Below, piece after piece: positions 33,567-62,480 of a DNA stretch of 64,000 bases (position 1 is the first letter of the stretch; each line of letters begins with the position of its first letter). This DNA comes from Chloropicon primus. Taxonomy: Eukaryota. Where the stretch lies: contig CP060766.1 of NCBI GenBank assembly GCA_023205875.1, positions 62,001 to 126,000 on the forward strand. The letters are read 5' to 3'. Under the pieces are notes generated by a model. The model made no database searches and had not been told where the DNA came from. It was given only the letters and a program-made list of their open reading frames with translations. Both the position numbers and the translations under genes were made by a program.

Positions 33567-34865
33567 GACGACAACAAGGTGATACCAAAAGATGATACCA
33601 AGACGACAACAAGACGACAACAAGATGACAACAAGGTGATACCAAGACGACAACAAGGTGGTACCCTAAGATGATACCAAGACGACAACAAGGTGATACC
33701 AAAAGATGATACCAAAAGATGATACCAAGACGACAACAAGGTGATAACAAGGTGATACCAAGACGACAACAAGGTGATACCAAAAGATGATACCAAGACG
33801 ACAACATGGTGACAACAAGACGACAACAAGATGATACCAAGATGACAACAAGGTGATACCCTAAGGTGATACCCTAAGATGATACCCTAAGATGATACCA
33901 AGACGACAACAAGGTGATACCCTAAGATGATACCAAGACGACAACAAGGTGACAACAAGATGACAACAAGGTGATAACAAGATGACAACAAGGTGATACC
34001 CTAAGATGATACCAAGACGACAACAAGGTGATACCCTAAGATGATACCAAGACGACAACAAGGTGACAACAAGATGACAACAAGGTGATAACAAGATGAC
34101 AACAAGGTGATACCCTAAGATGATACCAAGACGACAACAAGGTGATACCCTAAGATGATACCAAGACGACAACAAGGTGATAACAAGATGACAACAAGGT
34201 GATACCAAGATGACAACAAGGTGATAACAAGGTGATACCCTAAGATGATAACAAGACGACAACAAGATGACAACAAGATGACAACAAGGTGATAACAAGG
34301 TGATACCAAAAGATGATACCAAGACGACAACAAGATGACAACAAGATGACAACAAGGTGATAACAAGGTGATACCAAAAGATGATACCAAGACGACAACA
34401 AGGTGATAACAAGGTGATACCAAAAGATGATACCAAGACGACAACAAGGTGATAACAAGGTGATACCCTAAGATGATACCAAGACGACAACAAGGTGATA
34501 CCCTAAGATGATACCAAGACGACAACAAGGTGATACCAAAAGATGATACCAAGACGACAACAAGGTGATAACAAGGTGATACCCTAAGATGATACCAAGA
34601 TGACAACAAGGTGATAACAAGATGACAACAAGGTGATAACAAGATGACAACAAGGTGATACCCTAAGATGATACCAAGATGACAACAAGATGACAACAAG
34701 ATGACAACAAGGTGATACCAAGATGACACCAAGTTGATACCAAGATGACAACAAGGTGGGAACAAGATGACAACAAGGTGATACCAAGATGACAACAAGG
34801 TGGGAACAAGATGACAACAAGGTGATACCAAGACGACAACAAGGTGGGAACAAGGTGGGGCACAA
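33567..34865. repeat. Variant minisatellite, 11-bp units AAG(A/G)(T/C)GA(T/C)A(A/C)C with 13-bp variants
   Basis: Interspersed AAGACGACAAC, AAGATGACAAC, AAGGTGATACC, AAGGTGATAAC, AAGATGATACC, CTAAGATGATACC, AAAAGATGATACC; AAGGTGGGAAC near the right end. Confidence 0.95.
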
Positions 34866-35120: not shown

Positions 35121-36214
35121 TCAAAACCAGCGTCTGTAAAAGTCATGGCTCGGCTTTGCCCCCTCTAGTTTTGCACCGCTCGAGTTGCTTTCATGGGGCT
35201 TCTTCGCGATTTCCAGGTGGACCACGTCGCCTTCGTTCACACGGACGCGAGGGTGAAACGCGAAACGTGCGTGACGGCAGCGAGTCCAATCGTCGCACGA
35301 GCGAGCGCAAGAACAGGTACATGGGTCGCAGTCCACCTCCACCAAGGCCGGGCTGGCCGGCGAGCCGTGGAACTGCACCGAAAGCCATCCCGCGAACAAG
35401 TTGATCTCGCCACTTTGCTCCGCGTTGAAACGGCAGTTGAGTCTCATACTGCGCACATCCTCCGAGGTCGCAGTGAGCAAGTCCATCGTCTTGACCAACT
35501 CGAAAGGCGCGACCAGCTCGGGAGACTCTATATGGACGTCGTACCTCTGCTGGTCTGCAAGGCCGTCGCTCGCACGCCCCCGCTTGCCCATGCCTCTCCT
35601 GCGTTTCGTCCTCTGCCCGTGCGACTCTTCTTCGTCGCAGACCTCCACCATTGGTTCCTCTGACTCAAACTCCGTCGAGGCCGAGGCAGCTGGAGCGAGG
35701 AACACCTTGCAGTGAGAAGGGTACATGGCTCCGTCGGGTTTGAGGTACCTGTCTCTGGCGTTCAGAATCCTGTAGATCTTGGAGTGTTGCAGCCAGACAT
35801 CACCCGCCAAGTCGGACAAGATGATGTCCACCTTCCCTTGAATGTCCTCCTTCTTGGCTATGTTCTCGTCGTACACAGTGACGGTATCACCACCTAATTT
35901 GGTAGCATGCACGAGCTGCATGAGCTGCCTGGTAAAGACTTCCTCTTTCGTATCTGGCAGGATGTACACCTTCCTTGCCCCCGCTAAGGCGGCGAAGAAA
36001 CCGAGCACTCCACAACCGACGTCCAAGACCACTTTCCCCTGAAAGAGAGAGTCATTAAAAAAGATAGCGTCTCCGTACGCTTCTGGACAGCTCAAAACAT
36101 CCAGTAGCGGAGCAAAGGTAACCCAGGTAGCGTAGGTCAGGAAGGCTTCGTTGTCCCACGGCAGAGGAGTGTCCCCTTCCAAGGGCGGTGTGCCTTCGTC
36201 TTCCGCCGCCACCA
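35121..36214 (-). CDS. Degenerate protein-arginine methyltransferase-like protein (PRMT10-like)
   Basis: FQGKVVLDVGCG, ALAGARKVY, KVDIILSD, LNARDRYLKPDGAMYPSH, FAGWLSVQFHGS; catalytic motifs altered. Confidence 0.75.
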
Positions 36215-36639
36215 TGCTTGCTCTGTCTGCTCTTCGGTGGAGTGCCGCAAGCAAAACCCAGTCAACCAAACAACGACGTGTTCCATTAATTCTATGAAGA
36301 TGGGGTTCGATTCTCCCAACAACAATAGGATCCTAATCTGTGGAAAAAGAAAGAAAGCCTGGAATGATGAACATGATATTCACGGAGAAATAAATTCATG
36401 AAGCTCACATAACATTACCTATCCTGTTAGGCGTGAAACTAGTTTCGTTTGAGAGGCACTCTCGTGTGAGTTTTAGTGTTTCATTTTTTTCTGAAAATAA
36501 TCACATCGGCTCTTTCTCGTGAGCCTCTTATCCAGGGGGTATATAAGGCGAAGTCGACCAACAGAGCGCCTCACTTTTACGAACACGAGCTCGTACAAAC
36601 ACACACAACAACAAACCCAAACACCAAATCATCATCATA

Positions 36640-37242
36640 ATGGAGTCCGAGAGAAGATCCACCATGTCCAGCCTCAAGGGACAGTTGTCCAACGTCGAGG
36701 GCTCTGTCAAGAGCATGAAGGCCGCCGTCGTTGTCGGTTCCGTCTTGACCGTTGCCTGCTTGGCCGCCGTCTTCGGAGTCACCATCCTCGCCAACGAGGT
36801 CTCCAAGGAGGTTAAGGTTTCCAACGGAACCCTCACCGCCAAGAACGGACAGGCTGTCTTGACCACCAACTTGATCGCCACCACGAACGTCAACAGCGTC
36901 CTCCCAAAGGCCATTGAGTTGACCCACAACAACGTCGATATTGTTGCCAAGGTCAACGCCGTCGTTTCCGAGGGTGCCAAGACTACCTTGATCTGCGACG
37001 ACCTCGTCTACACCAGCGAGAACGGACAGGGCTCCACCCAGGTCACCTCTGGCTCCGTCTTGGAGTCCGTTTTGGACAACACCGTTGAGAAGAGAAACAA
37101 CGAAGATTCCAGCATGGATCGTTATTGTGATCGCCAAGTTCATCATTGGCGCTGGCTGTGACGGAATCGCCGCGAGCGAGGCTTTCCTGGATACGGCAAG
37201 GCCATCCAGAAGGCCATCCAGTTGTGCAGCGACTGGATCTAA
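36640..37242 (+). CDS. Membrane-anchored peptide-precursor-like protein, copy A (in-frame TGA at 37159-37161; probably disrupted or mis-called)
   Basis: Shared N-terminus MESERRSTMSSLKGQ...AVVVGSVLTVACLAAVFGVTILANEVSKEV; TLICDD; VEKR; the frame continues past TGA to TAA 37242 (...GYGKAIQKAIQLCSDWI). Confidence 0.65.
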
Positions 37243-37526
37243 AGGACCTGAATGAGAAACCCATATAATATACAGTTTTTTCGATATACAGTTTTTCGAT
37301 ATACAATTTAGTTCTGTTGGTGACCATCTTAGCCCGCGATCAGTAAAACATATTAGTTATGTACTTTGGAAGCCTTCTTTAAAGGCGATGCACTTGCACA
37401 CATACTTCTCTTCTCATGACTGGAGATGCAATAATTGATTTGGATACTTTTGTTAAGAAATTTCTTTCCACTGTATATTATATATTTCTTCCGAGTAAAA
37501 CCTTAAGGATTAGGAAAGGAAGTAAT

Positions 37527-38093
37527 TTACTGGTTCTCCTTCAACCACTCTCTGGCCCAAGCGGCACCCTTCTTGACGAGCCACTGAACGACGGCCATGA
37601 CGCACTTTCTCATGCTAGGCTTCCTCTTGCACTTCTTGCCGTAGTCCTGGTTAAGGCTTCTGAGCTCCAAGCTGTCCTCAGAGTCAAGGAAAGATCCCTC
37701 ACGGATGAGGACCTCCTCACCGATGACAACGATGTCGTCGCAGATGGTGGTGACGGTGGTTCCCTGGGTAACAACAGCGTTGACAGCGAAGACTCCGTTG
37801 AAGGAGCCGAAGTCAGCGACCACGCTCTCGGCAAGACCAGAAGCCTTGTTGGAGGTGTAGGTGGTGGTGGTCAAGACAGCCTGTCCGTTCTTGGTGGAGA
37901 GGGTTCCGTTGGAAACCTTAACCTCCTTGGAAACCTCGTTGGCGAGGATGGTGACTCCGAAGACGGCGGCCAAGCAGGCAACGGTCAAGACGGAACCGAC
38001 AACGACGGCGGCCTTCATGCTCTTGACAGAGCCCTCGACGTTGGACAACTGTCCCTTGAGGCTGGACATGGTGGATCTTCTCTCGGACTCCAT
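37527..38093 (-). CDS. Membrane-anchored peptide-precursor-like protein, copy B
   Basis: Same N-terminus; TTICDD; LELR then SLNQDYGKKCKRKPSMRKCVMAVVQWLVKKGAAWAREWLKENQ. Confidence 0.8.
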   Translation of the reverse strand: MESERRSTMSSLKGQLSNVEGSVKSMKAAVVVGSVLTVACLAAVFGVTILANEVSKEVKVSNGTLSTKNGQAVLTTTTYTSNKASGLAESVVADFGSFNGVFAVNAVVTQGTTVTTICDDIVVIGEEVLIREGSFLDSEDSLELRSLNQDYGKKCKRKPSMRKCVMAVVQWLVKKGAAWAREWLKENQ

Positions 38094-38501
38094 TATGATT
38101 TGGTGTTTGGGTTTGTTGTTTTTGTGTGTGTGTGTGTTTGTACGAGCTCGTGTTCGTAAAAGTGAGGCCCTCTGTTGGTCGACTTCGCCTTATATACCCC
38201 CTGGATAAGAGGCTCACGAGAAAGAGCCGATGTGATTATTTTCAGAAAAAAATGAAACACTAAAACTCACACGAGAGTGCCTCTCAAACGAAACTAGTTT
38301 CACGGATGATATGATAGGCCTTATCGTGTGAGTTTCATTGTTTTTTCTATTTTTCACAGCTTCCACCAGGCTCTCTCTTGTGATTTTAATTAATCCCAGT
38401 GGGGTATATAAGGCGAACTCAACACACAGAGCGCCTCACTTTTACGAACACGAGCTCGTACAAACACACACAAAAACAACAAACTCAAACACCAAATCAT
38501 A
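38094..38501. promoter_or_regulatory. Bidirectional promoter with two GGGGTATATAAGGCG TATA boxes
   Basis: TATATAA at 38190-38196 (-) and 38405-38411 (+), each about 90-100 bp from an ATG; further copies at 36540 (+), 40087 (-), 40302 (+). Confidence 0.75.
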
Positions 38502-39104
38502 ATGGAGTCCGAGAGAAGATCCACCATGTCCAGCCTCAAGGGACAGTTGTCCAACGTCGAGGGCTCTGTCAAGAGCATGAAGGCCGCCGTCGTTGTCGGT
38601 TCCGCCTTGACCGTTGCCTGCTTGGCCGCCGTCTTCGGAGTCACCATCCTCGCCAACGAGGTCTCCAAGGAGGTTAAGGTTTCCAACGGAACCCTCACCG
38701 CCAAGAACGGACAGGCTGTCTTGACCACCAACTCCTTCTTCACCGATAAGGCTAACAGCAACACTGAGTCCGTGGTCTTGAACTCTAAGGACGGTGCTAC
38801 CAGCGGAGTCTTCGCTGTCAACGCTGTTGTCACTGTGGGAACCAAGGCCACCATGATCTGCGACGACATCGTTGTTGTCAGCGAGAACGGTGCCAACGAC
38901 ATCACCATCGCTGAGGACTCCATCTTGAACAGCCTCATGCAGGAGGTTGAGGCCAGAAGTGTGAGCAAGTTGCCCAAGTGGCATCCATTCTGGTGGGCTG
39001 TTGGAAAGTTCAAGGCCTACATCTATGAGAACAGACAGGAGATCTGGGACTACGGAAAGAGATCTAGTGCTACCATGGACATGTGCGGTGTCGCTTGCGA
39101 CTAA
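38502..39104 (+). CDS. Membrane-anchored peptide-precursor-like protein, copy C
   Basis: Same N-terminus; TMICDD; VEAR then SVSKLPKWHPFWWAVGKFKAYIYENRQEIWDYGKRSSATMDMCGVACD. Confidence 0.8.
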   Translation: MESERRSTMSSLKGQLSNVEGSVKSMKAAVVVGSALTVACLAAVFGVTILANEVSKEVKVSNGTLTAKNGQAVLTTNSFFTDKANSNTESVVLNSKDGATSGVFAVNAVVTVGTKATMICDDIVVVSENGANDITIAEDSILNSLMQEVEARSVSKLPKWHPFWWAVGKFKAYIYENRQEIWDYGKRSSATMDMCGVACD

Positions 39105-39372
39105 AGAAGATCAATTGTCTAAAATATAATATGATATTTATGCAAAAAGTAACTACTTTTTCGAATTGAACGCAATGTGATGGAAGCACGGAATCTACAG
39201 CAGGAACAAGTCTCTGGTTACAAGTAACTTACTTGTGCGCCGTAGTCGACCTCGAGAAAACGTTGAACACCACCAAAGCAAACTTCAACATTGTCTGCGA
39301 AAGAATCAACTTTTGCATAAATATCATATTATAACAGAGATGGTGAATTTTGTTTTAGACAATTTATCTTCT

Positions 39373-39996
39373 TTAGCCGCAAGCGACACCGCACATGTCC
39401 ATGGTAGCACTAGATCTCTTTCCGTAGTCCCAGATCTCCTGTCTGTTGTCCCAGAGGTAGTCATATGCACCATGAATAAGCTTCGTGGTGTACTTCTCGC
39501 AAACCTTCTTCCAAGCACCAAACCAGCCGCACATACCGTTCACGCTTCTCTTCTCGACACTGTCACTCAGGTTGTTCAACATCGAGTCCTCAGTAACCTG
39601 GACATCGGTCTCACCGCCCTCCTGGGAGACAACGACGTCGTCACAGATGAGGGTAAGCTTGGTTCCCTGGGTGACAACAGTGTTGACGGCGAAGGTACCG
39701 GTCATGTCCTGATCAGCAAGGGTGACAACGGCGGTGGACGTGGAGAACTTTGCGGTGTAGTACATGTTGGTGGTCAAGACAGCCTGTCCGTTCTTGGCGG
39801 TGAGGGTTCCGTTGGAAACCTTAACCTCCTTGGAGACCTCGTTGGCGAGGATGGTGACTCCGAAGACGGCGGCCAAGCAGGCAACGGTCAAGACGGAACC
39901 GACAACGACGGCGGCCTTCATGCTCTTGACAGAGCCCTCGACGTTGGACAACTGTCCCTTGAGGCTGGACATGGTGGATCTTCTCTCGGACTCCAT
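39373..39996 (-). CDS. Membrane-anchored peptide-precursor-like protein, copy D
   Basis: Same N-terminus; TLICDD; VEKR then SVNGMCGWFGAWKKVCEKYTTKLIHGAYDYLWDNRQEIWDYGKRSSATMDMCGVACG. Confidence 0.8.
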   Translation of the reverse strand: MESERRSTMSSLKGQLSNVEGSVKSMKAAVVVGSVLTVACLAAVFGVTILANEVSKEVKVSNGTLTAKNGQAVLTTNMYYTAKFSTSTAVVTLADQDMTGTFAVNTVVTQGTKLTLICDDVVVSQEGGETDVQVTEDSMLNNLSDSVEKRSVNGMCGWFGAWKKVCEKYTTKLIHGAYDYLWDNRQEIWDYGKRSSATMDMCGVACG

Positions 39997-40323
39997 TATG
40001 ATTTGGTGTTTGAGTTTGTTGTTTTTGTGTGTGTTTGTACGAGCTCGTGTTCGTAAAAGTGAGGCCCTCTGTTGGTCGACTTCGCCTTATATACCCCACT
40101 GGGATTAATTAAAATCACAAGAGAGAGCCTGGTGGAAGCTGTGAAAAATAGAAAAAACAATGAAACTCACACGATAAGGCCTATCATATCATCCGTGAAA
40201 CTAGTTTCGTTCGAGAGGCACTCTCGTGTGAGTTTTCGTGTTTCATTTTTTTCTGAAAATAATCACATCGGCTCTTTCTCGTGAGCCTCTTATCCAGGGG
40301 GTATATAAGGCGAAGTCGACCAA

Positions 40324-42483: not shown

Positions 42484-42658
42484 AAGATGATACCAAGGTG
42501 ATACCAAGACGACAACAAGGTGATACCCTAAGATGATACCAAGACGACAACAAGGTGACAACAAGGTGACAGCAAGATGACAGCAAGATGACAACAAGAT
42601 GACAGCAAGACGACAACAAGATGACAACAAGATGACAACAAGATGATACCAAGATGAC
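42484..42658. repeat. Second, shorter array of the same 11-bp minisatellite
   Basis: AAGATGATACC AAGGTGATACC AAGACGACAAC ... including a local AAGATGACAGC variant; same orientation as the 33.6-kb array. Confidence 0.93.
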
Positions 42659-61793: not shown

Positions 61794-62480
61794 CGCTCCA
61801 GCGAGCGTGCGCGAGCAACGTCCGTCGTGCGTCGTCCAAAGGTCTGCCAACCCTCGGCCTAGGCGGGGGCAAAGAAAGAAAGAAAGAAAACGTCGAGAGT
61901 CAGACCGCGTCCGTCGTCGTTCAAAACAAGAACAAGAACAAGAACAAGAAGAGGATGCTGATGTTGGGAAAGGGAGGCTCGCTCGATCTGATCCTGGCCC
62001 CACGAAGAGGACGGACGATCTCAGTCGCTCGAGCTCGAGGTCTCTCGCCCTCGTCCCCCGTCACGAAAGGAAACGAAACGAAACCTAGCAAACCCTCGCT
62101 AGGTTCGTCCACGTCGTCGTCCTCGTCGGGGGGCGGGATCCTCACGAGGGGCCACCGACCGACCCAAAAGGGGAAGAAGAAGAAAAAAAAAACGTAAACG
62201 CCGTCGTCGAAGGGCCGCGCCCAAGCCGTCGTCGTAACGCCTCCGCGCTCCTCGTTGCGCGCGGTCGTCGTACCTCCGTCCTTGTGCGCCGATCGATCGC
62301 GAACAATAACCTGACGATCGATCGATCGGGTTTGGTGATCGCATCGATCGATCGCATCGCCGACAACAACAAAAGTGGAAAACGAAACCAAAAAAAAAAA
62401 AAAAAAACCAAATTTTTTTTTTTCGTGAGCGGCGCGGAGATTTTTAGATCAGGTCAGCGCCAACTTTTCCCCCAACCAAG

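Follow-up and report, generated by a model that had tools for sequence, protein, structure and literature searches.

A large unannotated Chloropicon family of predicted peptide precursors with a conserved Arg site before variable tails, and a Gly-Lys-Arg motif likely copied between two of its genes

The locus examined here raises the question of whether two related genes of Chloropicon primus, which end in the same 23 residues, encode precursors of amidated peptides. The window, meaning the whole 64,000-nucleotide stretch of contig CP060766.1 that was analyzed (positions 62,001 to 126,000), carries four paralogs: A (plus strand, 36640), B (minus strand, 38093), C (plus strand, 38502), and D (minus strand, 39996). 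Copies C and D both terminate in NRQEIWDYGKRSSATMDMCGVAC, followed by D or G, and the shared residues include a Gly-Lys-Arg (GKR) motif and a terminal CGVAC. In the preliminary description, GKR was read as a cleavage-plus-amidation signal within a polyprotein-like secretory precursor.

Copy C (38502..39104, plus strand) encodes a 200-aa precursor, has no apparent intron, and belongs to the same length class as its family homologs. Copy D (39373..39996, minus strand) encodes a 207-aa precursor and contigs (X4 and X5) of two runs guessed to be RNA span its full length with no splice joint; such contigs speak to presence only, with neither level nor strand readable. Copy C is not covered by the contigs of such runs, and no conclusion on its expression was drawn from that. 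Copy B (37527..38093, minus strand) encodes a 188-aa precursor with a cationic tail (+8). The tail of copy A (36640..37242, plus strand) is out of frame in the window, with a stop at 37159-37161; relative to the X1/X2 contigs and to the intact database allele P0006, copy A gains a base near 37100-37103 and loses one after 37185. These two compensating indels are likely an assembly error in the window, and X1/X2 may come from another strain. Both C and D encode a hydrophobic segment predicted to be a signal anchor (residues 29-51, 38586..38654, plus strand, in C; 39912-39844, minus strand, in D), which in copy D has a Kyte-Doolittle 19-residue mean of 2.48, with a charge of +2 before it and 0 after it.

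Together with their promoters, the four genes form nested direct and inverted repeats of up to 576 nt at 97% (36398-40323), and these repeats are a substrate for conversion and inversion. Tandem arrays of ~11-12-nt units (GATGATACCAA and GACAACAAGGT types) lie on both sides of the region (33570-34860 and 42485-42657). Beside the cluster is a divergent PRMT-like gene (35121-36215, minus strand), and in the published strain three PRMT-like genes, all with an expression of 0, adjoin family clusters on chromosomes 1 and 3 (PMC6731263, in part). A role for this neighbor as a tailoring enzyme was considered and rejected, as it is a C. primus-specific duplicate and is missing from 14 metagenome loci, mostly short ones; the gene is treated here as a hitch-hiker.

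The stretch shared by the two genes begins at 39030 in copy C (39031 in the preliminary description) and at 39447 in copy D. Over the last 24 codons, 71 of 72 nt are identical and 23 codons are shared, and the likeness reaches the 3' UTR as a 114-nt inverted repeat at 93% (39017..39130, plus strand, partnered by 39347..39460, minus strand), which is taken as the tract of recent copying between C and D. Beyond the stop codon, 19 of 20 nt match, 19 extra nt are present in D, and an identical 23-nt block with TATAATAT follows. The common GKR-bearing end and shared 3' UTR named in the preliminary description are thus confirmed; since TATAATAT trails each of the four paralogs (0.01 matches expected in the window, 4 found), part of that shared UTR is family-wide. 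Identity between C and D is 99.6% over codons 1-77, 61% over codons 78-150, 49% in the first half of the tail, and 98.6% over the last 24 codons. At codons specifying the same residue, the shared end shows 0 silent differences in 20, and the middle part shows 12 in 36 (Fisher p 0.005). Silent changes would survive selection for a peptide motif, so their absence fits recent copying between the inverted genes and not selection on GKR. The nearest C-type database gene, P0003, ends in GVGCVRP, and copy C of the window bears a D-type end. The GKR-bearing common end of C and D is likely the product of such recent copying, for which we infer conversion as the mechanism. The sharing is far above chance, yet it represents one copying event and therefore does not provide two independent occurrences of GKR.

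Whether any part of these proteins is under constraint as a processing signal can be judged across the family to which they belong. A search with copy D found 255 homologs, and the analysis was performed on the 120 of these that were listed; among the listed homologs, those that carry names are hypothetical proteins, from Chloropicon primus and C. roscoffensis, and the others come from marine assemblies. A profile search brought in more remote members (71 clusters, with E up to 0.001). The 120 listed homologs have a common layout, in which a near-invariant N-terminal 70 residues, including a near-invariant hydrophobic segment at 29-51, is followed, in this order, by a moderately variable domain, a spacer of acidic character, the conserved Arg, and the tail. 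Random pairs are 90% identical over residues 9-77, 34% in the middle domain, and 19% in the tails, and in 72 of 77 nearest-neighbor pairs the tail is conserved less than the middle domain. The middle domain is modeled as five beta strands (pLDDT about 80-89) and contains one Cys in 78 of 110 members; 1 of 15 branches in its tree is well supported. Three pairs (P0058/P0097, P0015/P0048, and P0006/P0037) combine middle domains that are 96-100% identical with tails that are very different or fast-changing, the extreme being P0058/P0097, with tails 25% identical and a middle domain 100% identical. Such pairs could reflect tail swapping or chimeric assembly. In the tails of two DNA pairs, pN/pS was 0.24/0.12 in one and 0.11/0.29 in the other, a mixed result by which diversifying selection is not established. 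Near the N terminus, an RRST motif (38514-38525 in the window and equivalents) occurs in 101 of the 120 listed homologs, 17 others being annotated from a later Met, and it is echoed in distant relatives of the family. We take RRST to resemble an ER-retention signal of the di-Arg kind that overlaps with a site for a basophilic kinase, and it might serve as a release switch.

The family is large, unannotated, and from Chloropicon. Pfam gave no match above the cut-off for the four copies, 62 members, and three tails; NCBIfam and PDB gave none for the tails of B, C, and D at E up to 10; a sequence search of PDB gave nothing significant, and the ESM Atlas gave no usable match. With a full-length model (pTM 0.35), Foldseek found no match at E 0.001, and the best VIA-align hit (Z 5.6, with the beta domain barely probed) was to generic long helices. 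No relative was found among viral contigs, and a homolog search with the tail only returned just two near-identical proteins. The published gene table, as far as consulted, has no homolog of six named paralogs in 13 other green algae, Chlamydomonas included (PMC6731263), and no description of the family was found in the open-access literature searched, including the main texts of two Chloropicon genome papers; the supplements of PMC6731263, or PMC12301720, could list it as an orthogroup.

The Arg preceding the tail is present in 115 of the 120 listed homologs. All tail counts use 110 of these rows, excluding 5 without an aligned Arg and 5 whose tails fall short of 30 residues (copy A with its frameshift and four truncated rows). 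The site reads R-x-[LIVM] in 94 of the 110 (33 of 40 clusters) and K/R-R in 60; all 50 nondibasic sites have the aliphatic residue and all 16 sites without it have KR, an association with p 0.08 when taken on the 40 clusters. Among the distant relatives, Lys precedes Arg in 2 of 15 listed, at a site picked by an ad hoc rule that picked wrongly in a 16th row. Sequence entropy stays near 2 bits through R+3 and climbs to 3.8 bits at R+4, and this jump places a border after R-x-x-x, which fits a cut after R-x-L-x. The motif RxLx/RxxL is that of site-1 protease (S1P/SBT6.1), by which RALF23 is cut after the fourth residue, RRIL (PMC13082318, in part). The enzyme acts in the early Golgi (PMC7162652, in part), and a C. 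primus MBTPS1 orthologue is annotated in another strain (A3770_04p31680, primary KO K08653; PMC6731263, from Supplementary Data 2). We regard processing at the R-x-[LIVM]-x site as likely, and the motif makes site-1 protease probably the cutter; because the 16 of 110 sites without an aliphatic residue are all KR, an enzyme specific for dibasic sites may process some members or even all of them.

In the window, the predicted processing site, on the predicted luminal side, is (EA)RSVS in copy C (38955..38966, plus strand; R-x-[LIVM]-x type), (EK)RSVN in copy D (39538..39549, minus strand), and RSLN, again of the R-x-[LIVM]-x type, in copy B; in C and D it sits 35-42 residues upstream of GKR. The tails predicted to be released are 45 aa with 2 Cys and a net charge of +2 in C (38967..39101, plus strand) and 54 aa with 4 Cys in D (39376..39537, minus strand). 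A subfamily (P0014, P0028, P0034, P0053, P0064, and others) ends in C-K-R-R-S-L-L-M-M-C, so that a Cys loop encloses a second motif of the site-1 type; RR.LL is found in 12 of 110 tails, all of one lineage, and in none of the shuffles.

The tails are 39-68 aa long and fall into 40 clusters at 40% identity (n = 110). Their composition favors Ala, Gly, Lys, and Trp (5.4%), their first half is more positive, and their net charge has a median of +2 and is negative in 41 of 110. The number of Cys residues is 0, 2, or 4 in 109 of 110 tails and even in 39 of 40 clusters, versus an expectation of 51%, which points to disulfides and hence to a luminal or extracellular location, that is, an oxidizing compartment. 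In 31 of 40 clusters, the helical hydrophobic moment is higher than in shuffled sequences (mean z 1.2, compared with -0.3 for the beta-angle control). The model of the copy D tail shows a pair of helices and a flexible end, GKR closing the second helix (mean pLDDT 57, pTM 0.26). Most antimicrobial peptides are more positively charged than these mildly positive tails, and no sequence or fold match of the family to a known antimicrobial peptide was found in Pfam, NCBIfam, or PDB. The tails of B and D recall, in what we take to be a resemblance of type, leaderless bacteriocins such as aureocin A53 and lacticin Q; this assignment found no backing in the searches, which gave no match at the sequence or profile level.

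These features bear on whether the tails leave the protein at all. The family could instead consist of anchored variable surface proteins, for example decoys or barriers against viruses, in which the Arg site matures the protein or stays uncut. The invariant anchor region, the multi-copy clusters, and tail swapping (as in P0058/P0097, where chimeric assembly is possible) would suit such a role, but a protease-type motif that is strongly conserved behind an acidic spacer, exactly at the border of variability, does not, and the even tail Cys count argues against a disulfide tether to the prodomain. We consider surface display highly improbable and release of the tail the better reading.

If the tail is released, the Gly-Lys-Arg codons of C (39054..39062, plus strand) and D (39415..39423, minus strand) might direct a second cut. 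Its products would be a 13-aa peptide with two Cys and a peptide ending in Tyr-amide, 29 aa long in C and 38 aa long in D. The motif is canonical, its KR-S-S-A is like the family sites KR-S-A-S and KR-S-T-N, and its modeled place at the helix end may be reachable by a protease, at low model confidence. GKR is kept in 7 of 7 C/D-type database sequences, all near copies, with Gly-Lys also in P0005. Against this, the nearest independent paralogs have GKT (P0005) and AAS (P0004) at this place, so that the Arg is missing, whereas CGVxC does not vary, nor do Y, N, and E; all 7 subfamily rows keep the two Cys, the G, and the V of the terminal loop (CGVAC, 39084..39098, plus strand, in copy C). One metatranscriptome contig matching up to 39060 continues, as we read it, with a non-Arg codon (Thr; Leu if offset by one). 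The Gly varies among close copies of B, which read DYGKK, DYAKK, and DYKKK, and A-type tails read YGKA or YSKT; the DYGKK pointed out earlier for copy B is present, but it lies at the start of the B tail and not where GKR of C and D aligns. Across the family, G[KR][KR] occurs in 9 of 110 tails (three of the nine terminal) versus 8.5 in shuffles, and in 5 of 40 cluster representatives versus 2.1 (p 0.054). A terminal Cys loop ends 26 of 110 tails, and in 23 of the 26 no basic pair is found in the 14 residues before the loop; only the three C/D-type rows have one.

The enzymes that a second cut would involve are partly annotated. PAM is annotated twice in the species (A3770_07p49720 and A3770_19p83380, in another C. 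primus strain; supplements of PMC6731263, in part) and is expressed, so that the absence of PAM, named earlier as grounds for refutation, does not apply. Zinc carboxypeptidases are annotated in the published gene table (PMC6731263, in part), PAM is also found in nonciliated green algae (PMC6529398, in part), and amidated products are proven in Chlamydomonas (PMC6919629, in part). The part of the gene table examined for kexin contains several subtilisin-like genes and no convincing kexin/PC label, the nearest trace being a secondary KO label on a hypothetical protein. The base rate of the motif is also high, as it occurs in 331 of 771 Chlamydomonas secretory proteins (PMC6313938, in part). A distant relative, P0161/P0176 (E 3e-12), joins the family front part to eight units of the form R-x-x-x / C-x-x-C-x-N...G, each with a final Gly that precedes the Arg of the following unit. 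Judged by its sequence, this relative is a genuine polyprotein whose amidation signal is plausible, although it is neither C nor D, and its Gly-Arg-ended units lend the second cut some plausibility.

We consider the second cut in C and D unlikely, and on sequence comparison GKR is probably not a conserved or selected amidation signal there. A selected signal releasing a 13-aa peptide does not agree with the loss of Arg in the nearest paralogs and the lack of enrichment, nor does a polyprotein layout hold for C and D, in which GKR is single copy per precursor and unconserved among homologs. The proteins do look like secretory peptide precursors, which the hydrophobic segment and the even Cys counts fit, and with PAM annotated amidation is possible, though unsupported at GKR. 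Even if it took place, amidation at the GKR of these two copies would be a small addition, the main interest being the family.

Amidation might also occur at the true C terminus of some tails. Basic C termini are found in 37 of 110 tails versus 12.6 in shuffles, and terminal G[KR]1-2 is found in 7 of 110 versus 1.5; the tail of copy D ends in Gly and that of P0004 in Gly-Arg. Terminal Gly amidation as a family rule was rejected, as Gly accounts for 7 of the 37 basic ends (p 0.13, not significant). These ends bear on a reading of the tails as signals, such as pheromones or recognition ligands of a rare sexual or stress stage, some of them amidated. Near-silence in vegetative culture, as for meiosis genes (PMC6731263, in part), processing of plant signaling precursors by site-1 protease (PMC13082318 and PMC7162652, both in part), the mixed tail charge, and the terminal G[KR]1-2 counts speak for signals. 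Set against them are at least 40 unrelated tail types with no common receptor-binding motif, the nonsignificant Gly enrichment at basic ends, a terminal residue that varies within the C/D group (D, G, A, VRP), and the amphipathic, Trp-rich character of the tails, and a signaling role therefore seems doubtful to us.

The near-silence is seen in another C. primus strain, in which six named paralogs have mean read depths in culture of 0, 0, 0, 0.14, 0.59, and 1.88, compared with 5.9 for MBTPS1, 34 for PAM, and 150 for RPL18 (PMC6731263, in part). Contigs of family relatives are present in two marine metatranscriptomes, and we infer that expression of the family is inducible. Each paralog has one TACGA-N8-TCGTA element upstream (38443..38460, plus strand, for C; 40038-40055, 36578-36595, and 38141-38158 for the others) and one TATAATAT element downstream (39125-39132, plus strand, for C; 39326-39333 for D; 37264-37271 for A; 37475-37482 for B). 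Among 14 metagenome loci, most of them short, the former is found in 8 (L002-L008 and L013) and the latter in 7. The presence of both once per paralog and in metagenome loci suggests shared regulation. The palindrome has constant arms and an 8-nt spacer that varies among metagenome relatives, and it could be a 5' UTR hairpin or a factor-binding site.

The preferred reading, release of the whole tail, can be laid out as a pathway. The precursor would be inserted in the ER through its signal anchor in a type II orientation, with the N terminus in the cytosol, and would then pass to the Golgi, where one cut after R-x-[LIVM]-x, probably by site-1 protease, would release the variable tail as a single oxidized, disulfide-looped helical peptide. 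By analogy, the beta-rich middle domain may act as a folding or shielding prodomain. The released peptide would likely act on the membranes of other cells, in defense or competition. For this complete course, from a membrane-anchored precursor to a released tail with a defensive role, we see the chances of its being right and wrong as evenly balanced. A wider proposal, that Chloropicophyceae maintain an inducible, recombining library of dozens of secreted, disulfide-looped peptides on a constant membrane-anchored carrier, freed by site-1 protease, with distant relatives that include polyproteins of probably amidated, Gly-Arg-ended Cys-x-x-Cys peptides, is put forward tentatively and is somewhat less likely to hold.

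Chloropicophyceae are dominant open-ocean picoalgae. If the tails are secreted effectors, they would represent a large new source of bioactive peptides from abundant ocean phytoplankton and a testable handle on the interactions of algae with bacteria, competitors, grazers, viruses, and mates. Peptide release by site-1 protease would be extended to a deep green-algal lineage, with conservation reversed relative to plant hormones, and a unicellular alga would possess a peptide arsenal like that of frog skin or cone snails.

Among known systems, the proGATI-type precursors of Chlamydomonas likewise come from a green alga with PAM and have Gly-basic motifs (PMC6919629 and PMC6313938, both in part). 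Two of the three Chlamydomonas substrates identified in those sources end in -GRRR or -GR, whereas GKR of C and D is internal and unconserved, and there is no homology.

The BRICHOS precursors of polychaetes (nicomicin and arenicin) offer a closer parallel in layout. As described in part of PMC6265681, they share with the Chloropicon family a length of about 200-240 aa, a hydrophobic N terminus, an acidic proregion with a folded domain, a subtilase site, a short C-terminal peptide, and the use of one prodomain for several peptide types; nicomicin consists of a helix with a disulfide loop as its cap, the form predicted for C and D, which is an analogy and not membership. The Chloropicon proteins differ in having no BRICHOS match in Pfam (62 members), one middle-domain Cys in 78 of 110 instead of the two that, with one Asp, define BRICHOS, a site that is mostly R-x-L-x and not dibasic, and antimicrobial activity that is putative.

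Precursors of frog-skin antimicrobial peptides have a conserved prepro front and a variable peptide. The frog-skin Rana box peptides have in common with the algal family an acidic spacer, a basic site, and an amphipathic helix, the Chloropicon counterpart of their loop being the terminal Cys loop of 26 of 110 tails (PMC6265681, in part). There is no sequence match, and the Chloropicon prodomain is longer, folded, and equipped with a predicted anchor, and many tails are neutral or acidic.

Plant precursors cut by SBT6.1 (RALF23 and CLEL6/GLV1, with PROSCOOP via SBT3.5) carry the same RxLx/RxxL motif directly before a small peptide (PMC13082318 and PMC7162652, both in part), and the RALF peptide holds Cys residues, as the Chloropicon tails do (PMC13082318, in part). 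In the plant precursors, the mature peptide is conserved and the prodomain is variable; in Chloropicon, the reverse is the case.
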